A stretch of DNA of 64,000 nt from the NCBI GenBank assembly GCA_002411015.1, contig DHPY01000074.1:4126-68125 (forward strand), written 5' to 3'. Every line of letters begins with the position of its first letter. Within the stretch, counting starts at the first letter, position 1. Under the pieces are notes generated by a model that was not told the DNA's origin, ran no database searches, and saw only the letters and a list, made by a program, of their open reading frames with translations. This DNA comes from Armatimonadetes bacterium UBA5352. Its GTDB lineage: Bacteria > Armatimonadota > Zipacnadia > Zipacnadales > UBA5352. Shown here one piece after another: positions 29,627-41,990 of the stretch. The position numbers and the translations under genes are program-made.

Positions 29627-29649
29627 CGCACGCGGGAGGAGTGGTGGCG

Positions 29650-30126
29650 ATGGAAGCGATGCGTCCTGCGACGCTGAAGGACATGCCGCGCTTGCAGCAG
29701 ATCGTCGAGGAAGTCTGGGCGATTGGCTCAGACTTCGCCCTTGAAGAGATGTACGGCAGCGTCGGCGACGAGCGGTGGGACCGGTGGCTGGTGCCGAAGG
29801 TCATGTCGCGACTGTGGGCCGAACTCGGGAGCGTCCTGGTCACGGAGATAGATGGCGCGATCGCGGGATTCATCAGCTACGCGATCGACCGCGGACGCGG
29901 CGTGGGGACGATCCACTACAACGCGGTCGCCGAGGACTACCAGGGGCGGGGAGTCGGTGGCCGGCAGCTTGAGCGCGCGCTGGAGATCATGCGCGCCGCC
30001 GGGGTGAAGATCGCGTGCGTCGGGACCGGCCTCAATGAGGGCCACGCCCCGGCGCGCCGGATGTACGAGCGAGCGGGCTTCGAGCCCGTGATCGAGTACC
30101 GCATGTACACGCGGCGGCTGGACTGA
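29650..30126 (+). CDS. GNAT-family N-acetyltransferase
   Basis: Acetyl-CoA motif VAEDYQGRGVGGRQLERAL and C-terminal RRMYERAGFEPV. Start is ambiguous (29641, 29650 or 29659). 29650 has the best spacing to GGAGG. Confidence 0.85.
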   Translation: MEAMRPATLKDMPRLQQIVEEVWAIGSDFALEEMYGSVGDERWDRWLVPKVMSRLWAELGSVLVTEIDGAIAGFISYAIDRGRGVGTIHYNAVAEDYQGRGVGGRQLERALEIMRAAGVKIACVGTGLNEGHAPARRMYERAGFEPVIEYRMYTRRLD

Positions 30127-30143: not shown

Positions 30144-31475
30144 CTACTCAATGAGACGGGCGGCATGCCGGTAGCGCTCACGCACCACGGTGAGTGTCTG
30201 CTCGGCATGCCGCCTGAGCATTGCCACGACCGCCCCGATGTCCACTCCGGCCACCTGAAGTGAGAGCAGCCCCGGCTGGGAGAGCAGCACCTCCTCGTCA
30301 CTCTGGCGCGCGACCTGCTCCGCCTGCCGCAGCACATCCACGAGGTTCCCGTAGGCGTTGGCGCCGACGTACTGCTCCGGGCGCTCCATCACGTTCGTCA
30401 TGTAGGCCTCTTCCGGCAGCTCCGCCCATGCCATCCCGATCTGCCGCAGGATGCACGGGACGCAGCCTCCGCACTGGCGGTTGGTCCTCCCGACCGCCCA
30501 GCATGAGACCGTGCTCTGGATCTCGCGCGGTGAGAGGCGCGGGGCCAGGACGTCGCGGATCAACTCGGACTTGGTTTGGTACATGAACGGGTTCACGAGG
30601 CGGGCCCGCAGCCCGCAGGCCTCCGCGACGCGGTTCATCAGCGCCACCGCGAGCGGATGCGTGGAGTGAGTGGACATACTCCCCGCCCTCGCGGCAGAGA
30701 AGGGCAGCCCGGCAGTCAGCATCCCGTTCTCGCAGAGGTACGCCTCATCGACCTGCGCCGCCTCAGCAGCCGCCAGCGCGAGCGCCATGAACAGCAGCGA
30801 CCGGCAGCGGCGCGATGGCTCGCGCTCCCTGGGCGGCGGGTAGGGCAGGGCGCCCTCGGCCGGCGGCTTCGGCTCGATCTCACAGGCGCGAGCAGCCCAC
30901 TCCCCCGGCCACTGCCTGTCCAGCGCCCCGAGCGCGCCCTGCTGCGCCGTGCGAACCGCCGGGTTGCCCGAGCGGTGCAGCACGTACAGCGGTGAGCGCC
31001 CCGTTTGCTGGAGCATGACTGCGCCCGCGAGGGAGTCGAGGCCGCCTGAGAGCGTGCTGACGCAGTCGGGGCGGAGAGTCGGGGGCAGCGCGTCCGCGGC
31101 AGGCGCGATCGCGGGAGGCGCCTGATCACCCTCCCGGAAGCTCAGGCGGATCGTGTCGCGCGCAAGCTCGTGGACCAGCCTGTGCAGCTCCGGGGTCAGC
31201 GAGCGCCACGATGCCGCGTCGCGGACGGTGACGGTCAGCTCAAATGACCTGGGCCAGCGCTCGCGTTCACCACGTTTGACTGCGATGTCCGCGGCATAGA
31301 GTGCCACCGCTATGTCCAGCAGGTCAAGCGCGGGAGGGGGAAGCTCGGTGTCGGCAGGGCTGCAGAGCGCACCGAGGCGGGCGGTGATGTTCGCCTGCGC
31401 CCCGCGCCATGCAAGCAGCAGGTCCGCGGAGAGATCGGCGCCGGGGCCATTTGTCGCTACGAGGCGCAGCGGCAT
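30144..31475 (-). CDS. QueC-like PP-loop ATPase with a ~170-aa N-terminal extension (QatC/Cap9-like)
   Basis: Start MPLRLVATNG at 31475, 2 nt after the upstream stop. PP-loop is STLSGGLDS. QueC-like core is RSLLFMALALAAAEAAQVDEAYLCENG and FMYQTKSELI. C-terminal Cys cluster is SCWAVGRTNRQCGGCVPC. The upstream Arg/Ala-rich part of the 493-aa ORF is rejected. Confidence 0.8.
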   Translation of the reverse strand: MPLRLVATNGPGADLSADLLLAWRGAQANITARLGALCSPADTELPPPALDLLDIAVALYAADIAVKRGERERWPRSFELTVTVRDAASWRSLTPELHRLVHELARDTIRLSFREGDQAPPAIAPAADALPPTLRPDCVSTLSGGLDSLAGAVMLQQTGRSPLYVLHRSGNPAVRTAQQGALGALDRQWPGEWAARACEIEPKPPAEGALPYPPPREREPSRRCRSLLFMALALAAAEAAQVDEAYLCENGMLTAGLPFSAARAGSMSTHSTHPLAVALMNRVAEACGLRARLVNPFMYQTKSELIRDVLAPRLSPREIQSTVSCWAVGRTNRQCGGCVPCILRQIGMAWAELPEEAYMTNVMERPEQYVGANAYGNLVDVLRQAEQVARQSDEEVLLSQPGLLSLQVAGVDIGAVVAMLRRHAEQTLTVVRERYRHAARLIE

Positions 31476-31477
31476 GC

Positions 31478-32254
31478 TCAGAGCCCCCCTGCGCCGAGCA
31501 GGTCGAGGCCCTGCCCGATGCCCGCCGCGAGGATGGGCGAGAGCATGGCGACACGGTCTCGCGGGGCAAGCTCGGGCACTGCGCCCAGGTCGGCCTCGAA
31601 CCGGTCGAGCCGCAGCTGCTCCCATGTCGCGCGACAGTGGGCCGCGACGGCGTCCTCGAAGCGGTTGGCGTGGCTCACCGAGGGGAGCCCGGCTCCGCCG
31701 ATGAAGTCGCCGAGGTCCCGCGCGACGAGGTAGCGGAAGGTCCGGTCCAGATGGTGGCCGACGAAGAGGGCCATCGCCTCCTGCAGGCCGCGCTCGCGGC
31801 CAAGCCGCGTGATGCTCGCCTCAGCCTCGGCGAGGGGCAGGGAGATGACGCCAGCGCCGGTGGTGGAGCGGGTGGCGACGGCGATCGCCGAGTTCCCGAC
31901 AGCGTCCAGCGCCAAGTCACCGAAGCGTGACGCGTAGCCCTCGGCCGCGATCGTGCGCTCGGCCCGCGCGCGCAGGCCCGCCGCCCACTGCAGCGCGGCA
32001 GGCTCAGCACCGGCGCCAAGCGCGGTGAGCGCTCCCGGCAGGCCGGTCAGCTCAACGCTGCGCACACCCTCCACCAGCGTGCCGAGACTGGTCGCGCTTG
32101 CGGCGTCGCTCATCCCGCCGCGCGTCTCGGGCTCCAGCGCGGCCACGATACGCGCGACCACCTCGCGTGGAGACGGGTCGGGCTGCGCGTAGAGTTCGCG
32201 CACCCGTTTCCAGGCCTCTGTCTCCGGGGATCGATGCCAGGTTGATGTGCCCAT
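31478..32254 (-). CDS. Hypothetical protein, candidate QatB-like partner of the QueC-like enzyme
   Basis: ORF 31478-32317. The first ATG (32254) gives MGTSTWHRSPETEAWKRVRELY... (258 aa). I recognise no domain. It is coupled to the downstream gene by a 2-nt spacer. No clear SD, so the start is uncertain (GTG 32317 is the alternative). Confidence 0.55.
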   Translation of the reverse strand: MGTSTWHRSPETEAWKRVRELYAQPDPSPREVVARIVAALEPETRGGMSDAASATSLGTLVEGVRSVELTGLPGALTALGAGAEPAALQWAAGLRARAERTIAAEGYASRFGDLALDAVGNSAIAVATRSTTGAGVISLPLAEAEASITRLGRERGLQEAMALFVGHHLDRTFRYLVARDLGDFIGGAGLPSVSHANRFEDAVAAHCRATWEQLRLDRFEADLGAVPELAPRDRVAMLSPILAAGIGQGLDLLGAGGL

Positions 32255-32433
32255 GATGGTGTTGATGGTCCAGTGGCTATGAAGGGAGCGACCATTCGTT
32301 GCAGTCAGATGCCTCACCTCCCCGGCACGCCCACGGCCCGTCTTTCATTGACACCTGAGTCTCTCCAGTGCTATGATTGCCCGCGCCGAGGGGGTCTGCC
32401 CCCGGCGTTCCGACCACGCACTAAGAGTCTCGG

Positions 32434-34635
32434 GTGGAGCACGTGGCGGCTGAAGAATCCAGGCCTCGACATCTGGGCCTGCCGGACTACATCCGGATCC
32501 TGTCCAAGCGCAAGTGGTTCATCCTCATTGTCACCGCTGTGGGGATGCTCGTGGGAGGGCTGCTCGCCCTCTCAAGTGAACGGCTGTACGAGGCGACCTC
32601 CCTCGTCATCATCCAGCAGCGCCCGCAGGGCTTCTTCTGGGTCACCGGCGAAGAGGCCGGGATGCCTCCCAACGTCGCGATGGAGACCCACGCGCGCATC
32701 GTGCGCAGCAGCGACGTCACCCAGCTTGCCTCCGAGAAGCTGCAGCAACTCCCGACCGATTCCCGGGTCATCGCCACCTCCACTGAGATCCAGGACGCGC
32801 TGAATGTCAGCGTCATCGAGCCGGACCTTCTACGCATTGACGCGACCTCCCCCGACCGCCGCAGGGCGCTCCTGTTCGCCAATTACACCGCGTTCGCGTT
32901 CGTGGAGAGGAACCTCGAGGACCGGCAGCGGGAGAGCCGCGACGCCCGCGAGTTCCTTGAGCGCCAGGTGGCGCAGTACGGTACGGAGGTCGAGTCCATC
33001 ATCGAGGAGATGACCGCCTTCGCGCGCGATTCGGGCTTCGTGGACATCGACTCGGAGATCGGCCAGGCGGTGCAGAGCCTCGCGGCCTATGAGAACGAGG
33101 AACGGCAGGCTCAGCGCGAACTCATGGCGGCCGAGGCGCGCCTGGCGGAGCTTCGGCAGGTCCGCGGCAGCCAGGGCGACTACCTCGTGGGCGAGGCGCC
33201 GGCGCCAAACCCCGAGTGGACGACCCTCCAGGCGAGCCTCACTGAGGCGCGTATAGGGCTCGAGAAGCTGCAGTCGCAGTACACGGGCGGCAATCCGCTG
33301 GTCCTCGACCAGCAAGCCCTGGTGGAGGAGCTTGCGGCGCGGCTTGCCGACACGCCGCAGCTTGTTCGCGCGGAATCGACTCGCGCGAACCCGGCCACCA
33401 CCGGGATTGAGGGCGAGATCAAGGCCGCCGGGGTGGCGGTGCAGGAGGCGCGGGCGCGGGTCGCCGCCGCGCAGGGCGTGCTCGGAGGGGTACAGGAGCG
33501 CATCAAGGATCTGCCGGATGCGCGGCAGCAGTGGCAGGGGCTGACCGATCGACTCGACGCCGCACGTGAGGCCTACCTGAGCCTGCAGGGCGAACTGCGT
33601 CAGGCGCGCCTCTCAGAGGCGGTCAAGAAGGGCAACGCGCGGGTCGTTGACCAGGCGCAGGAGCCCCGCGAGATACAGACATCTCTGCTGCACTCACTGC
33701 TCTTCGCGCTGGCCATCGGCCTCTTCATCGGGGTCGGCCTGTCCATCCTGCTCGAGGCGCTCGACGACACAATCTACTCCGTGGACGACCTCCAGCGGGT
33801 AAGCGACCTGTACCTGCTGGGCGTCGTCCCGCTGCACATGGATGACGCCGGGCCGCTCGTCACCGTGGACGCACCGAAGAGCCCGTCGGCGGAAGCCTAC
33901 CGCACGCTGCGCAGCAACATCCGTTTCTCCCTGTTCGATCGCCCGGCGAGGACTTTCCTCATCACCAGCGCAGGCTCCGGGGAGGGGAAGTCGGTTACCA
34001 CGGCCAATCTCGCTGTCGCGCAGGCGCACAGCGGCCTGTCAGTCATCCTGGTGGATGCCGACCTGCGGCGCCCCGTCCAGCACAAGCTCTTCGGCGTCCC
34101 CTCTGAGGTCGGCGTCACGAACGTCGTAGTCGGCGACATGAGCGTTGCCGAGGCGCTGACACCCACCGAGGTCCCCGGCCTCAGGCTGCTCACCTCGGGG
34201 CCGGTGCCGCCGAACCCGGCTGAGCTGCTGGAATCCGAGCAGATGACTGCGGTGATCCAGGAGTTGACGCAGCTGGCGGACCTGGTGATCTTCGACTCGC
34301 CGCCCGCGGTCATGCTCACCGATGCGACGGTGCTCGCGGCGAAGCTTGACCGCACCATCGTCGTCGCCGAGTCGGGCCAGATCACCGAGCGCGCCCTCGC
34401 CGACGTGGAGCGGCTGTTCCGGCACGCGCGTGCGGACATCCTCGGCATCGTGCTCAACAAGCTGCGGATAACCGGCGGTGACTACCACTACTACTACTAT
34501 TACTACTCGGACTACTCCGAGGAGCCTCAAAGCCCCCGCGGTGCGCGCAACGCCAGCGGCAGCGAGCGCAAGGCCCAGGACCTGATCGACCTCAACTCCT
34601 CCGACGAACGCGGGCGTGACGACTTGGAGGCCTGA
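32434..34635 (+). CDS. Polysaccharide-copolymerase / tyrosine autokinase (BY-kinase, Wzc/GumC-like)
   Basis: Wzz-type N-terminus with a TM segment (WFILIVTAVGMLVGG), a long coiled-coil and a second TM. Walker A is SAGSGEGKSVTTANLA, A' is VILVDADLRRP and B is LVIFDSPP. Tyr-rich tail is GGDYHYYYYYYSDYSEE. GTG start. Confidence 0.9.
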   Translation: MEHVAAEESRPRHLGLPDYIRILSKRKWFILIVTAVGMLVGGLLALSSERLYEATSLVIIQQRPQGFFWVTGEEAGMPPNVAMETHARIVRSSDVTQLASEKLQQLPTDSRVIATSTEIQDALNVSVIEPDLLRIDATSPDRRRALLFANYTAFAFVERNLEDRQRESRDAREFLERQVAQYGTEVESIIEEMTAFARDSGFVDIDSEIGQAVQSLAAYENEERQAQRELMAAEARLAELRQVRGSQGDYLVGEAPAPNPEWTTLQASLTEARIGLEKLQSQYTGGNPLVLDQQALVEELAARLADTPQLVRAESTRANPATTGIEGEIKAAGVAVQEARARVAAAQGVLGGVQERIKDLPDARQQWQGLTDRLDAAREAYLSLQGELRQARLSEAVKKGNARVVDQAQEPREIQTSLLHSLLFALAIGLFIGVGLSILLEALDDTIYSVDDLQRVSDLYLLGVVPLHMDDAGPLVTVDAPKSPSAEAYRTLRSNIRFSLFDRPARTFLITSAGSGEGKSVTTANLAVAQAHSGLSVILVDADLRRPVQHKLFGVPSEVGVTNVVVGDMSVAEALTPTEVPGLRLLTSGPVPPNPAELLESEQMTAVIQELTQLADLVIFDSPPAVMLTDATVLAAKLDRTIVVAESGQITERALADVERLFRHARADILGIVLNKLRITGGDYHYYYYYYSDYSEEPQSPRGARNASGSERKAQDLIDLNSSDERGRDDLEA

Positions 34636-36951: not shown

Positions 36952-36993
36952 TCCGCGCACGGGCTCGAGCGAATCGCCCGCAGGAGGGTGGAG

Positions 36994-37635
36994 ATGAGCG
37001 AACAGCGGGACCTTGATGCGATCTGGCAACAGGCGCGTGAGAAGCTGCTTGACGAGATGGGAGACTTCAACCGGAGTCTCTGGGACGCCGCGAACGCCGC
37101 GCAGGCGCTGATGCTCGACGAGGAAACCTTCGTCCTCGGCATCGAGCCCGGGAAGATGGGGCTGGGCAGCCATCTCACCAGCACCGCCAACGGCCCGCTG
37201 GTGCGGCAGGTGGTGGAGCAGGTCGTGGGGCGGCCGATCAAGGTCGAGCTTGTTGAGGGCATCGGTCCGGAGGCGTGGGAGCGGGAGAAGAAGCGGCGCG
37301 AGGTTCGCGAGCAGATGGCGGCTCGGCAGGAGCAGGCGATGCGCGAGACGGCGGGCGCGCGCGCGATCTGGGGCTCACTCTATGAGGAGCTGGGCCAGCT
37401 CTTCGGCACTGTGCGGGAGCGCCGCTTCCCGATGGTGCGAGCGCAGATGTTCGCGAAGGCACTGCTCGCGGTGCGCGATGCCGAGACGCGGGCCATCGAG
37501 CAGGAGCCGGAGGCGCAGCAGTTCCATGAGGAGCAGCTCAACCGCAACATCACGCGCATCGCCACCCTCTCCGATGTGCCGGAGACAATCGTGGCGGTGG
37601 AGTACCTGCGCGTGCGGCGGGTGAAGAAGGACTGA
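36994..37635 (+). CDS. Hypothetical protein with a DnaA N-terminal-domain-like region
   Basis: ATG 36994 follows AGGAGGG. The sequence LDAIWQQAREKLLDEMGDFNRSLWDAANAAQALMLDEETFVLGIEPGKMGL...VGRPIKVELV follows the DnaA_N pattern (W..al..l......f..w........l....l.l..p). The remainder is a charged helical region. Confidence 0.55.
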   Translation: MSEQRDLDAIWQQAREKLLDEMGDFNRSLWDAANAAQALMLDEETFVLGIEPGKMGLGSHLTSTANGPLVRQVVEQVVGRPIKVELVEGIGPEAWEREKKRREVREQMAARQEQAMRETAGARAIWGSLYEELGQLFGTVRERRFPMVRAQMFAKALLAVRDAETRAIEQEPEAQQFHEEQLNRNITRIATLSDVPETIVAVEYLRVRRVKKD

Positions 37636-37642
37636 AGCCGAT

Positions 37643-37670
37643 GGCGGGGCCGGCATCCGGCCCCGCCTTT
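37643..37670. terminator. Bidirectional intrinsic terminator between convergent genes
   Basis: ggcggggccgg-cat-ccggccccgcc (11-bp stem) followed by ttt. It lies between the stops at 37635 (+) and 37670 (-). Confidence 0.6.
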
Positions 37671-38008
37671 CACTTCATGCAGGCGACGCGGCCACTGCCG
37701 TCCGTGCTGAAGTGGTTGCGCACGCAGTTGCAGCAGACGCCTTTGTTGCCGCACGGGTCCCAGGTGCAGACGCAGAAGTCGAGGTTGCGCTGCTGGTTGG
37801 TGGCGCATGCCTTCTGCGCCTGGCTCACGAGGGCCATGGTGGCCGCATCGCGCATGGCGCCCCGCATGCAGGCGCTCTTACCACCCTTCGCGGCGTGCGC
37901 CTGGATGCACTCACAGCAGATCCCACGGTTGCCGCAGTTCTCCGATGTGCACGGGCACATCTGCAAGTTGATCGCGTAGTTCATGCACTGCTCGGGCAGT
38001 GTCGCCAT
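37670..38008 (-). CDS. Small cysteine-rich protein with two tandem CxC...CGN[RK]G[IV]CCxC[IV]xxH modules
   Basis: 112 aa with 16 Cys. ACGGAGGA RBS. Repeat 1 is NLQMCPCTSENCGNRGICCECIQAH..SACM. Repeat 2 is NLDFCVCTWDPCGNKGVCCNCVRNH..VACM. Confidence 0.7.
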   Translation of the reverse strand: MATLPEQCMNYAINLQMCPCTSENCGNRGICCECIQAHAAKGGKSACMRGAMRDAATMALVSQAQKACATNQQRNLDFCVCTWDPCGNKGVCCNCVRNHFSTDGSGRVACMK

Positions 38009-38543: not shown

Positions 38544-38867
38544 GACAGACCTCCCTCTCTGCAGCTCTCGTAGTCACAGGCACGATGGTAGCGGAACTGA
38601 GGGCATCGTGCACATCCGTACTTCCCCCGGATACCGGGCCGTCGGTATACCCGTTTGCACTCAGGATGAACCCGCGATCTCGCCGCACCCTCAGAGCGCT
38701 CACGCCCGGTACCGATCAGAAAAAACGTCAGATTGCAGGGAAGGATGTCTTCATGTGGAAGAATATGGCGAGGATGACACGCTACAGCAACGAGATCGTG
38801 GGGGCGCACGCGTCGGTAACGCCGTTTGCCCGCTGCATCGTGGAATGCGAGCAGGGAGGTGCTACCG

Positions 38868-41800
38868 GTGGAGACGGTACCGTCGGGGCGCGCAGCGCGC
38901 GAGGCCATCATCAATATCGGCCTGATGCTGGCCTGGGTCGCAGTCACGGTCTGGCTCATCTCATGGTCTCGCGCGGGCGATCCCGCGCACAGCCGCTTCT
39001 ACGTCGTGTTGATCGGCGGGGCCCCGCTGGCCTGCTTCTACGCCTGCCGCATCTCGACCCTGCGCCTCGTGGTTTCTCTGATCGTGGCCGCGGCGCTGGG
39101 TTACCTCATCGAGTACGTAGCCGGCGTTGCCCGGGTCTGGGATTACCCGCCCTTTGACGGCTCAGGGCGGCCCGCCCTGTACGTCGCCTTCATCTTCGGC
39201 TTCTCCTCCATCGCGGCGTTCTCGGTCGCGGAGGCGCTGGATCACCTGCTCCGGCTTCGCCGCGCCTTGCGCGGCATGAGCCTCTACCTCAACTCCGCGA
39301 TCATCTTCGTGGCCTTCGTGACTCTCATCCGCCTGCTCTCCGTGGAGGACCACGGCATCCCCGGCCGTGCGGCGGCAGGCTCCCCCGGCGTCATCGTCTT
39401 CTACACGACGATCGTCCTGCTCGCCTGGTACTTCGCCTCTATCGCCCGCACCGGGCGGCTTCTCAGCCTGCTCACCGCCGGCGGCCTGATCTGCCTCGCG
39501 GGCAACCACCTCGGGGCGGAGGCCGGCCTCTGGCGCTTCACCGAAGGGGCAAAATGCCCGCACTTCCTCCTGTTCGCGGCGTGGCCTCTCGAGGTCCTGG
39601 TCTGGTACAGCCTCGGCGCCTTCGGGAGCGCGTATATCGCCTCGCGACTGCGCCGGGACGGGCAGGAGCTCCTGACACTGGCGCGCGGGTCGCTCGACAA
39701 GATCGCCGAGTCGACCATGCAGCAGGCTTCCTACCTGATGGCGATCGCGCTCTCGGCTGCTATCGCCGGCATGGTCTATGAAGGCGCCCTGTACGCGCCC
39801 GAGCAGTGGCGTTTCGCCCTGGTACCGGCGCTGCTCTTCACGATCGCGGTGGTGACCTCCGAGAGAGCCTACTGGGTACGTATCGTGTGGCTCTTCGGAG
39901 CAGGCATGGCACTTGGCTATGCGCTCTCACTCTGCCAGTTGCTGAAATGGGAGACCGGCACTGGGAGGCACCTCTTCATGCTCCCGGTCTGGGGGATGGC
40001 GGCGGTGGCGGCGTACGGCATCGGTGCCGGGCTCGCGGGCTGGCTCTGGGAGGGCGGGGAGTGGACATCCCTCGACCGTCCTGGCCATGTTCCCGTGCTC
40101 GTTGTGGCCGTCGTGCTCCTGATCGCTATTGGCTTTGGGATCAGCACAGACCTGGTTGGCGGCGCGTCGAGCGGATCATTACTGCCGGCGGTCGTGCTGG
40201 TGACCGCGCTGGCGGTGCTGGCCGCGGCACTGGCAGGGCTCGCCACCGCCATCCCCGTGCTGCTGCTGGGCATCGGCTTTCTGTTCTCCCCCGGGAAGAT
40301 GATGTATGCGTCGCAGCTTCTCTCCGTGCTGCTCTTCGTCTCCGCCGCCGCGCACCTGTGCTACAAGAGCATCGTGGAGATCCGCACGCGCACGCTCTTC
40401 GGCTTCGCGGTCGCCGCCATCGGCCTGTGCGTGATCATCCTCCGGGGCGCCTGGGGGGCGGGCCTGATCGCGCACGACGGCGGCTTCCCGTGGTACCTGG
40501 CGATCGGGCTGGCCCCACTGCTTCTGATGGCAGCCTGCACCGCATCGGGCACCTGGTCGGGCAGCGCGCAGAACCGTGTGCCGCAGGAGGGGCCGAAGCT
40601 CCTGACCGGCCCCGCCTATACGCCGCCTGCTGCAGTGCCTCCACCGGCGAGGTCGGTCGTTGCGCTGGCCGTGGCGCGTGATGACGACGGCGGTACGCGC
40701 GCGCAGCGCTCCTCGGCCTGCCTCGGCCGCGCGCTGCGGATGCTCGATCAGAGCGGCGAAGCCGGCGCGGCCTCGATCTCGCGCTACATCGGCGCGGGCG
40801 AGAGCGTCTTCATCAAGCCGAACGTGGTCCTGCCGCTCTACTCGCCATGCACGGTGCTGCCTGAGCTGATCCATGACCTGGCCGGGCGCTGCGTGCAGGG
40901 CGGGGCCTCCCGGGTGGTCATCGGCGAGACCTCGCTCTCGGAGTTCACCGCGCGGCAGACCCTGGTCTCGACGGGCTTCAAGGAGTACTGGGAGAGCGCG
41001 GATGACGAAGGCCGGATCAAGGTTGAGCTGCTCGATGAGACACAGTGGCTGCCGGTTGACACGGGTACCGCGGAGGACCCGGAGCCGTTCGGCTACCTGC
41101 CACGGTCGCTGGTGGAGTGTGGTAGCTACATCAACGTGAGCAAGCTCAAGACCCACTACATCACCGGGGTGACGCTGGCGATCAAGAACTCGCTCGGGCT
41201 GGTGCTCGACGAGGAGAAGTGGATCGAGCACTGCGGCTGCTACGACGTGCACAGGCTGGCGCGCAAGCTGGTTCGGATCATGCGCGCGCGACCGCCGGAC
41301 CTGGTGATCATCGACGGCTTCGATGGCCTGGAGGGCGACGGGCCGTTCATCGGCACGCGCGTAGATACGCAGTTCATCATCGCCAGCACCGATCCGGTGG
41401 CTGCCGATTGCGTGGGCGCCGCACTGATGGGCCGGGATCCCGCGGAGATCGCCACCTGCAACATCGGCAGTGAGCTTGGCCTCGGGAACAGCGACTGGTC
41501 GCGGATTGGGGTGGTGAGCGAGGACGGGCCGCTCGCGCCGCTTCCCGAGGCCCTTGAGCCGCTCATCCACGACTTCGCCCCTCCGCAGGAAGCGCCGCAG
41601 GGAGAGATTGCGCAGATCGGGCCGCTGACGCTGATCTCCCAGGACCCGCCGGAGCTGCGAGCGGGCCCCTGGTCCACGCTCTACGGCGTGCTCTCGCTCA
41701 TCAGGCCGCTGGCGGAGGTCTACATGCCGGGGGAGTGGGCCAAGCTGCGCGGGATGACCATCGTCTACGGTGAGGTGAAGCGGCCGGTGGAGGCCGAGGC

Positions 41801-41990
41801 GGCGCTGCTGTTCGGCGATCGCGCGATAGCCTCGCGGCAGATGGTCTACGCCCCGATGGTCTGGCAGGTGAAGGGGAGCATCCCGAACCGCTACCTCGCG
41901 GCGATGAGCCAGATCGCCATCGGGGGCGATCTAGCGGTGCTCAAGATCATCTCGACGGCGCTTCTGCGCACGAAGGGGGATTACCTGTGA
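38868..41990 (+). CDS. Polytopic membrane protein fused to a C-terminal DUF362 domain
   Basis: GTG 38868 lies 8 nt after AGGGAGG. About 560 aa of repeated TM modules come first. The DUF362 pattern follows: SVFIKPNVVL, INVSKLKTHYITGVTLAIKNSLG, IIDGFDGLEGDGP and ASTDPVAADCV. Confidence 0.8.
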   Translation: METVPSGRAAREAIINIGLMLAWVAVTVWLISWSRAGDPAHSRFYVVLIGGAPLACFYACRISTLRLVVSLIVAAALGYLIEYVAGVARVWDYPPFDGSGRPALYVAFIFGFSSIAAFSVAEALDHLLRLRRALRGMSLYLNSAIIFVAFVTLIRLLSVEDHGIPGRAAAGSPGVIVFYTTIVLLAWYFASIARTGRLLSLLTAGGLICLAGNHLGAEAGLWRFTEGAKCPHFLLFAAWPLEVLVWYSLGAFGSAYIASRLRRDGQELLTLARGSLDKIAESTMQQASYLMAIALSAAIAGMVYEGALYAPEQWRFALVPALLFTIAVVTSERAYWVRIVWLFGAGMALGYALSLCQLLKWETGTGRHLFMLPVWGMAAVAAYGIGAGLAGWLWEGGEWTSLDRPGHVPVLVVAVVLLIAIGFGISTDLVGGASSGSLLPAVVLVTALAVLAAALAGLATAIPVLLLGIGFLFSPGKMMYASQLLSVLLFVSAAAHLCYKSIVEIRTRTLFGFAVAAIGLCVIILRGAWGAGLIAHDGGFPWYLAIGLAPLLLMAACTASGTWSGSAQNRVPQEGPKLLTGPAYTPPAAVPPPARSVVALAVARDDDGGTRAQRSSACLGRALRMLDQSGEAGAASISRYIGAGESVFIKPNVVLPLYSPCTVLPELIHDLAGRCVQGGASRVVIGETSLSEFTARQTLVSTGFKEYWESADDEGRIKVELLDETQWLPVDTGTAEDPEPFGYLPRSLVECGSYINVSKLKTHYITGVTLAIKNSLGLVLDEEKWIEHCGCYDVHRLARKLVRIMRARPPDLVIIDGFDGLEGDGPFIGTRVDTQFIIASTDPVAADCVGAALMGRDPAEIATCNIGSELGLGNSDWSRIGVVSEDGPLAPLPEALEPLIHDFAPPQEAPQGEIAQIGPLTLISQDPPELRAGPWSTLYGVLSLIRPLAEVYMPGEWAKLRGMTIVYGEVKRPVEAEAALLFGDRAIASRQMVYAPMVWQVKGSIPNRYLAAMSQIAIGGDLAVLKIISTALLRTKGDYL

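Follow-up and report, generated by a model that had tools for sequence, protein, structure and literature searches.

The locus described here lies in a 64-kb stretch of DNA from Armatimonadetes bacterium UBA5352 (the window), where a gene pair resembling qatB and qatC of the Qat anti-phage system occupies the minus strand at positions 30144-32317. The first gene encodes a QatB-like partner protein of 258 amino acids (aa) (31478..32254, minus strand, stop codon included; ATG at 32254-32252, TGA at 31480-31478), whose translation opens with MGTSTWHRSPETEAW, and the second encodes a QatC-like PP-loop ATPase of 443 aa (30144..31475, minus strand, stop codon included; ATG at 31475-31473). The spacer between the partner stop codon and the ATG of the QatC-like gene, read from the sequence, is exactly 2 nt long (31476..31477, minus strand), as a preliminary description of the locus had reported, and a G-rich stretch, AGGGGGG, is found 8-14 nt upstream of this ATG. 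The 2-nt spacer indicates that the two genes form an operon and makes their translational coupling probable. The flanking genes were likewise found as first described: a GNAT acetyltransferase gene (29641-30126, plus strand) is convergent with the pair and lies tail-to-tail with the QatC-like gene, 17 nt away, and a gene for a Wzz/GNVR/ParA-type BY-kinase (32434-34635, plus strand) is divergent from the partner gene. The same locus is present in 20 public contigs obtained from several samples, in which independent gene calls likewise gave proteins of 258 aa and 443 aa. Because these contigs agree, a full QatABCD or CBASS (cyclic-oligonucleotide-based anti-phage signalling system) locus split by the assembly, which had been raised as a possible objection, is ruled out.

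The 443-aa protein is homologous to QatC over its full length and is not a housekeeping QueC, since sequence matches, motif mapping and full-length fold agree on this identity. It was matched by the PADLOC QatC model at 2.7e-54 and by the sequences of solved QatC proteins at 1.6e-30 (9zee_B) and 6e-27 (9vlk_A). Foldseek with the AlphaFold2 (AF2) model of the protein (predicted local distance difference test, pLDDT, 89.3) recovered QatC 9y01_B with an E-value of 7.7e-19, and both 9y01_B and 9y02_B aligned over the full length with template-modelling (TM) scores of 0.71-0.74; Cap9 (9nto_B) and QueC (3bl5, 2pg3) covered the core alone, with a TM score normalised to the query of 0.31. The kinship with QatC proposed earlier for this long QueC-like protein was thus borne out. 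The NCBIfam QatC model NF041925 scored 203.3 bits over residues 48-407 and, because its equivalog cut-off is 280 bits, the protein as judged from its sequence is a member of a divergent QatC subfamily rather than an equivalog. In a neighbour-joining tree of QatC-like proteins, the Armatimonadota enzymes, the window's among them, formed one clade, apart from the canonical clade and from the clade associated with FokI-type accessory proteins (see below).

We considered whether the 443-aa protein could be a divergent housekeeping QueC making preQ0 for queuosine, with an unrelated gene upstream. The enzyme shares with QueC the PP-loop Rossmann-like core and the C-terminal Zn-binding cysteine cluster, the Pfam QueC model matches it above the gathering score (8.1e-07, 29 bits vs. 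22), and several public annotations call its homologues '7-cyano-7-deazaguanine synthase'. The Pfam match, however, spans only ~70 residues, and the QueC equivalog model TIGR00364 gave 16.2 bits against a cut-off of 150.3. Housekeeping QueC proteins are ~220-230 aa long, without extensions, and carry the motifs YxQxHxxE, VPxRN and YPDC, all absent from the window's enzyme, in which the Tyr/Asp substrate residues of QueC are replaced by Thr/Ser. Moreover, the full-length fold matches QatC whereas QueC matches the core only, a queC deletion is not rescued by E. coli QatC (PMC13329287), the pair has no que-gene context and the partner gene is always linked to the 443-aa gene. On the TIGR00364 score, the pocket residues, the fold and the genomic context we rejected the housekeeping QueC explanation, which we regard as extremely improbable, in agreement with the first reading of the locus.

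The motifs of the enzyme were mapped by alignment to solved QatC, a 37-member family alignment and published motif lists. The QatC-type N-terminal extension comprises residues 1 to ~135 (31071..31475, minus strand) and aligns with residues 51-151 of solved QatC; it had been estimated at ~170 aa, but the QueC core begins near D137-C138. Within this extension, for which the motif definitions are those of PMC13329287, D51 aligns with D63 of E. coli QatC, the motif D63-x4-R68…W74-x-R76 is present, and D51, D63, R68, G69 and R76 are invariant among the 37 family members. The QueC-fold core spans residues ~136-348 (30432..31070, minus strand), with support from the Pfam QueC match and the structural matches to Cap9 and QueC, and contains the ATP pyrophosphate-binding PP-loop SGGLDS (residues 143-148; 31032..31049, minus strand), invariant in the family; the equivalent residues S156, D160 and S161 of P. 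aeruginosa QatC are essential (PMC13279940). The substrate pocket, S268-T269-H270-S271-T272-H273-P274 (30654..30674, minus strand), aligns with S277-T278-R279-T280-T281-H282-P283 of P. aeruginosa QatC, the QatC-type T-x-S replacing the Tyr-x-Asp of QueC and Cap9. Here T269 is invariant and S271, a conservative Thr-to-Ser change, nearly so, and their counterparts T278 and T280 are essential in P. aeruginosa QatC (PMC13279940). The presumed Zn site is formed by four cysteines, C325, C335, C338 and C341 (30453..30503, minus strand), invariant among the 37 members and corresponding to C334/C354/C357/C360 of QatC (PMC13279940); its first spacer is shorter in the window's enzyme, C-x9-C compared to C-x19-C. 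A helical C-terminal extension of ~95 aa, a QatC hallmark missing from the preliminary description, covers residues 349-443 (30147..30431, minus strand), with helices predicted in the AF2 model at 366-369, 373-390, 393-399, 401-409, 413-434 and 436-442. It falls within the full-length Foldseek alignment to QatC, and the equivalent region is the QatB-binding base in solved QatBC (PMC13279940). The enzyme thus has in common with QatC both extensions, SGGxDS, the four-cysteine Zn site, the Thr-type pocket and the motifs RxRxxxF, ExG (as ENG), HP and P-x4-TK. All the motifs listed from first inspection (STLSGGLDS, RSLLFMALALAAAEAA..EAYLCENG, FMYQTKSELI and SCW…CGGCVPC) were also found. Taken over these alignments, the catalytic, Zn-site and pocket residues are intact.

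The partner protein has no such clear affiliation. Its homologues make up ~60 clusters, nearly all exactly 258 aa long and all from Armatimonadota. As anticipated for a protein without a recognisable domain, no match at E≤1 was obtained against PADLOC, Pfam and NCBIfam, including the QatB models NF041924 and PF28083, and searches of the PDB sequences returned nothing either by phmmer with the single protein or with the profile. Canonical QatB used as a tblastn query gave no link to the partner, and hhalign between 60 partner homologues and 33 canonical QatB sequences gave a probability of 0.9%; as a positive control, canonical QatB scored 204.6 bits on NF041924 and carried PF28083. The profile searches proposed in the preliminary description therefore succeeded for one half of the pair, the enzyme matching QatC and the partner matching no QatB model.

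At the level of predicted structure a possible resemblance to QatB was observed. The AF2 model of the partner (pLDDT 92.5) is all-helical, with 11 helices, and among 350,542 PDB chains its two top Foldseek matches were QatB 9y02_A and 9y01_A (probability 0.99 and 0.96, TM 0.42-0.53), which come from the same crystals as the best QatC match of the enzyme; the remaining matches had TM scores ≤0.29. Since there is no sequence link and the Foldseek E-value is weak (0.18), homology with QatB is not proven; we call the partner QatB-like without counting it as QatB, and it belongs to a separate small family.

The resemblance extends to the N-terminus. The first 22 residues, MGTSTWHRSPETEAWKRVRELY (32189..32254, minus strand), in which Gly2 is the presumed acceptor, are among the two most conserved stretches of the partner (mean majority-residue fraction 0.82-0.89): the five top-scoring 20-residue conservation windows all start at residues 1-5, and only in one of two alignments does a short block at 109-120 exceed the N-terminus. 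G2, T3, S4, S9, P10, W15, V18, R19 and Y22 are invariant or nearly so. The protein opens with MGTSTW, the reading obtained earlier from the first ATG, and MGTS is invariant among the homologues; in canonical QatB, MGTS is described in two structural papers as a highly conserved and functionally essential N-terminal motif (PMC13279940; PMC13639016), the G2D substitution abolishes defence (PMC13279940), and an NDG-modified GTSKAY peptide was found by LC-MS/MS (PMC13639016). The concern that the true start might lie elsewhere was not borne out, as the homologues are conserved exactly from M1-G2 onward and not in extensions upstream of it. In all of 62 distinct relatives the codon before G-T-S is of the initiation type (ATG in 57, GTG in 2, TTG in 2, CTG in 1); this census fixes the start of the partner and hence the exposure of Gly2. 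The SP…W element that follows is likely a docking motif, Pro10 and Trp15 being analogous to Pro16 and Trp18 of QatB with a different spacing (SP-x4-W at 9-15 here, LxP-x-W at 14-18 in QatB). In the AF2 model, order sets in from about residue 13, and pLDDT falls below 50 at residues 1-5 only.

Two kinds of variant were seen among the partner's relatives. In some Armatimonadota the partner is C-terminally fused to a LexA-type Peptidase_S24 domain, in three independent cases (L094:4073-5380, L103:4826-6112 and P0303), with QatC and GNAT still downstream in L094 and L103, and one gene call (P0282) joins it to regions 2 and 4 of an ECF sigma-70 factor. Distant relatives of ~260 aa (P0322, P0331, P0347, P0356, P0370) start with MGH… in place of MGTS, with Gly2 and a P-x-T-x2-W motif retained.

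When one genome per GTDB species was scanned on the basis of QatC, the loci fell into three kinds. In canonical qatABCD loci (L121, L126, L127, L128, L131, L132, L135, L137, L142), QatA and QatD flank the core; the Armatimonadota pairs, in ~55 species, consist of the partner and the QatC-like enzyme only; and a third group (L116:6370-9868, L119:79-3544, L120:6335-9784, L122:6392-9784, L125:6357-9775, L130:6340-9916) is a four-gene operon found in Acidobacteriota (Blastocatellia, Pyrinomonadaceae), Bacteroidota, Bacillota (Symbiobacteriaceae), Chloroflexota and Kiritimatiellota. The first gene encodes a protein of ~310 aa that carries a FokI-cleavage-like nuclease domain (28 bits for PF09254 in L120), followed by genes for an MGTS partner of ~190 aa, a QatC-like enzyme and a protein of ~210 aa, starting with MKIPLRELE and of no known family; only the QatC-like enzyme is matched by PADLOC (about 1e-60). 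No description of this Qat-like operon was found in the literature searched. Side observations in the same scan concern other QatC-like clades (Bathyarchaeia, Cyanobacteria, Nitrospirota, Planctomycetota and others; L118, L123, L124, L129, L133, L134, L136, L138, L139, L141, L143, L144, L145), in which no MGTS-type open reading frame (ORF) was seen within 2.2 kb upstream and neither QatA nor QatD was present.

In hhalign, the ~190-aa partners of the four-gene operon proved to be homologues of the window's partner (97.2%, E 3e-11), and the two share the motifs MGTS-x4-SP-x4-W and Y-x-V-[AS]-R-D…G; against the canonical QatB profile, hhalign found the ~190-aa partners unrelated. In HMMER searches with the partner profile, only 179 clusters among 1.84 billion representative proteins were recovered at E≤1e-3. 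These profile comparisons point to a second, small QatB-like family, to which the window's partner and the ~190-aa partners belong. Compared to the window pair, the four-gene operon has a homologous partner ~70 aa shorter and a QatC-like enzyme of a separate clade, and adds the upstream FokI-cleavage-like and the downstream ~210-aa proteins, both of which the pair lacks.

Accessory genes were looked for in the window and in related loci. In tblastn searches with two canonical sequences each of QatA and QatD, neither the window nor any of 72 related loci gave a match at E<1. Nor were the FokI-type and 210-aa accessories, readily recovered in the control loci, found at E≤1e-3 in the window or in related Armatimonadota DNA totalling 1.44 Mb; E. 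coli QueC, QueD, QueE, QueF, QueA and Tgt likewise found no match there at this threshold, in a search that covers only ~1% of each genome and says nothing on whole genomes. Neither CD-NTase nor Cap10 was among the identified neighbours of the pair, which belong to other families. The earlier statements that QatA, QatD, CD-NTase and TGT-like genes are missing nearby, and queD, queE and queF from the window, are thus upheld.

Given that its relatives are four-gene systems, QatABCD or the FokI-type operon, the pair might be a decaying, non-functional remnant of such a system that has lost its effectors. Both ORFs are nevertheless intact in ~55 species at identities down to ~30%, with catalytic, Zn-site and N-terminal motifs invariant, the pair diverges at a rate equal to that of the neighbouring peptidyl-prolyl isomerase (PPIase), and the frequent frameshifts or stop codons expected of decay were not seen in close relatives. 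The intact ORFs, invariant motifs and PPIase-like divergence rate speak for long-term purifying selection; the remnant explanation was rejected on the intact ORFs and conserved motifs in ~55 species and is in our judgement very improbable.

The hosts of the pair belong to the Armatimonadota class Zipacnadia (GTDB UBA5377) and its relatives, anaerobes of sediments and digesters. In this lineage, wherever a contig covers both genes, partner and enzyme lie side by side (~55 species), so the survey of conserved synteny called for at the outset found the two genes together throughout, and the objection that homologues might not co-occur falls away. The flanks fall into at least three conserved housekeeping arrangements. 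In arrangement A, that of the window, the pair lies between the BY-kinase and a series comprising GNAT, a SurA-like PPIase, PGA_cap, archease, an ECF sigma/anti-sigma pair and an M48 peptidase; in arrangement B, between recF, dnaN, dnaA and a membrane protein followed by an AIR-synthase-like protein; and in arrangement C, between a HAD hydrolase, a DapA-like protein and a small Cys protein on one side and GNAT on the other. The pair was seen directly downstream of recF-dnaN-dnaA, in the replication-origin region, in L015, L016, L017, L018, L019, L020, L021, L036 and L040. No integrase, transposase, tRNA or known defence gene was found near the pair.

When matrices of pairwise identity were compared, partner and enzyme gave a rho of 0.67 (50 species), and the pair against the neighbouring PPIase and GNAT gave 0.59-0.72, a correlation as strong as that of PPIase with GNAT (0.72); within arrangement A the pair averages 0.61-0.65 identity and the PPIase 0.60. 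Of the 32 species with the GNAT marker, 28 or more have the pair too, and no remnants of the pair were found in the GNAT loci without it. In a check for horizontal transfer, the GC content of the pair (0.71-0.73) showed no convincing anomaly compared to that of the flanks (0.62-0.70). Because divergence tracks the neighbours, the synteny groups are three and of housekeeping type, the enzymes form one QatC clade and GC shows no strong anomaly, inheritance is best taken as vertical; this argues that the pair consists of old, selectively maintained chromosomal genes and is not defence-island cargo.

Two known systems offer a model for what the pair does. The closer one is QatBC of QatABCD from E. 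coli and P. aeruginosa (PDB 9y01/9y02, 9zee, 9vlk), in which, as here, a partner gene precedes an enzyme gene in tight coupling and the partner is all-helical, ~260 aa long and starts with MGTS; the fit to qatB-qatC in gene order and size noted from the start thus holds. It differs from the window pair in having QatA (a KAP NTPase) and QatD (a TatD nuclease), and the pair is chromosomal, vertically inherited and outside any defence island, with an enzyme below the QatC equivalog cut-off and a partner missed by NF041924, PF28083 and profile-profile comparison. The second model is Cap9 with its CD-NTase in type IV CBASS, again a QueC-fold enzyme with an N-terminal Gly partner (MGGS there, MGTS here), a similarity by which modification of the window's partner may be proposed. 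Cap9 complexes with its protein substrate and modifies the N-terminal Gly exposed by Met removal (10.1101/2025.04.06.647259), and the statement in the preliminary description that it attaches a 7-deazaguanine derivative to the N-terminus of its partner is confirmed by the same source. Cap9 is, however, a minimal ~185-aa QueC with a Tyr/Asp pocket for 7-carboxy-7-deazaguanine, compared to 443 aa and a Thr/Ser pocket in the window's enzyme, and its substrate is a CD-NTase and it depends on CBASS effectors and on the TGT-like Cap10, none of which is found here. Assignment to Cap9/CBASS was rejected on the core-only alignment, the Thr/Ser pocket and the lack of CD-NTase and Cap10 neighbours.

By analogy with Cap9-CdnD and with QatBC of E. 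coli and P. aeruginosa, we propose that the pair is a two-gene QatBC-type operon whose enzyme deazaguanylates the partner, most likely with a constitutive anti-phage function, and we put the probability of this reading at roughly 0.7. Methionine aminopeptidase would remove Met1 of the partner and expose Gly2; the N-terminal peptide GTS…SP…W would then dock in the active site while the helical body binds the C-terminal extension of the enzyme. The enzyme would adenylate a carboxylated small molecule, most likely 7-carboxy-7-deazaguanine, at the expense of ATP, and the carboxylate would be joined to the alpha-amine of Gly2, giving an N-terminal 7-amido-7-deazaguanine-type adduct. With no QatA, QatD or nuclease-type accessories, the modified partner or the BC complex itself would be the output, in keeping with the minimal nucleobase-protein conjugation module suggested at first. 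The anti-phage role is taken as the default because published truncation experiments show that QatBC alone protects E. coli against lambda-vir; QatB G2D and QatC PP-loop mutants lose defence in the same work (PMC13279940).

Several observations weigh against this proposal. Apart from MGTS, the partner resembles canonical QatB in no way that sequence or profile comparison can detect, its fold match to QatB is weak (E 0.18, TM ~0.5, root-mean-square deviation 6-7 Å), and its flexible tail is predicted at ~12 residues compared to 30-90 in canonical QatB. The enzyme stays below the 280-bit cut-off of NF041925. In vitro reconstitution failed even for the chemistry of canonical QatC, whose Thr pocket may mean another substrate (PMC13279940), and no gene of the 7-carboxy-7-deazaguanine/queuosine pathway was found in the ~1% of each genome searched. 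Finally, anti-phage systems are seldom inherited vertically throughout a lineage amid housekeeping genes.

This last point, together with the S24 and sigma fusions, keeps alive an alternative in which the same N-terminal modification serves a housekeeping or regulatory role, the partner being a signalling or transcription-linked protein that is switched by the modification. Throughout a class-level lineage the pair is passed on vertically and nearly always present; it is carried by nearly all GNAT-marker species (the at least 28 of 32 given above), lies among dnaA-dnaN-recF, envelope and metabolic genes with no mobile or defence genes nearby, and its partner is in some relatives fused to domains typical of transcriptional regulators, LexA-type Peptidase_S24 in three cases and an ECF sigma factor in one. 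Against this, every QatC or Cap9 system studied experimentally is anti-phage, the nearest relatives of the partner stand in operons with a FokI-like nuclease typical of defence, LexA-like S24 domains occur in defence and prophage switches too, and the sigma fusion is a single gene call that could be an artefact. We therefore hold a regulatory role to be possible but doubtful. A more specific form of it, that a QatBC-type module was fixed early in an Armatimonadota class and kept as a core regulatory switch with a transcription- or stress-linked output, seems to us unlikely, slightly more so than a regulatory role in general. Such a switch would work by nucleobase conjugation to the N-terminus of a helical signalling protein, and besides the S24 and sigma fusions, a co-inherited RimI-like GNAT that opposed the enzyme at this amine would be in its favour.

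The GNAT protein beside the pair is matched by Pfam Acetyltransf_1 (2.8e-14), and its best NCBIfam match is the N-terminal acetyltransferase RimI, at 32 bits against an 86-bit cut-off. All 32 orthologue loci of this family, which carries a WDRWLVPK motif, are from Armatimonadota, and the family appears limited to this lineage. In 24 of the 32 the gene lies tail-to-tail with the QatC-like gene, in some with every other neighbour changed, and it is missing from the dnaA-linked arrangement B. The GNAT protein may be functionally associated with the pair and is at most a candidate member of the module; that it competes with the enzyme for the same alpha-amine, as an antagonist, is speculation.

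Further features of the window were observed apart from the pair. A scan for promoters and terminators, which is uninformative for this phylum, returned no terminator, and the sole promoter-like site faces the BY-kinase: a near-consensus sigma-70-type promoter at 32348-32377 (plus strand; TTGACA, 18-nt spacer, TATGAT, extended TG) in the 179-nt divergent intergenic region, directed toward the BY-kinase gene. A Cys-rich protein of 112 aa (37670-38008, minus strand) is internally duplicated (CPCTSENCGNRGICCECIQAH and CVCTWDPCGNKGVCCNCVRNH), is matched by neither Pfam nor NCBIfam and keeps 72-79% identity among syntenic relatives, and a conserved 215-aa protein without a family match (36988-37635, plus strand) is found in arrangement A, always between the DUF3160 gene and the Cys-rich gene. 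A 1054-aa protein (38826-41990, plus strand) has a long polytopic membrane region and, at its C-terminus, a DUF362 domain; over 39000-41000 the DNA is strongly skewed in AT, with negative values of about -0.25 to -0.29.

The notion of a minimal module is less novel than it would have been, because experiments published in 2026 already identified QatBC as the minimal functional core of Qat defence and showed that it defends E. coli on its own (PMC13279940). A survey of the QueC family reported that only ~34% of the genes in the QatC cluster have qatA or qatD nearby, the rest being undescribed there (PMC13329287), and in the literature searched we found no prior account of a natural stand-alone BC pair, of a second partner family or of lineage-wide vertical inheritance. 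The Armatimonadota pairs indicate that nature has kept B and C alone for a long time, without nuclease or NTPase, an argument for placing the output function in the BC complex itself, and they provide a clean model in which to study QatBC. As essentially the sole feature common to canonical QatB and the second family, the MGTS peptide is probably the main element they share and a key part of recognition by the enzyme. The partner family (~180 clusters at 50% identity among 1.84 billion representatives) is unrecognised by PADLOC, Pfam and NCBIfam, and such systems are therefore invisible to current defence finders. Because the pair is vertically inherited in housekeeping contexts and its partner occurs fused to S24 and sigma domains, protein deazaguanylation might also reach beyond immunity; if the pair does act as a regulatory switch, it would be the first non-defence use of this modification.

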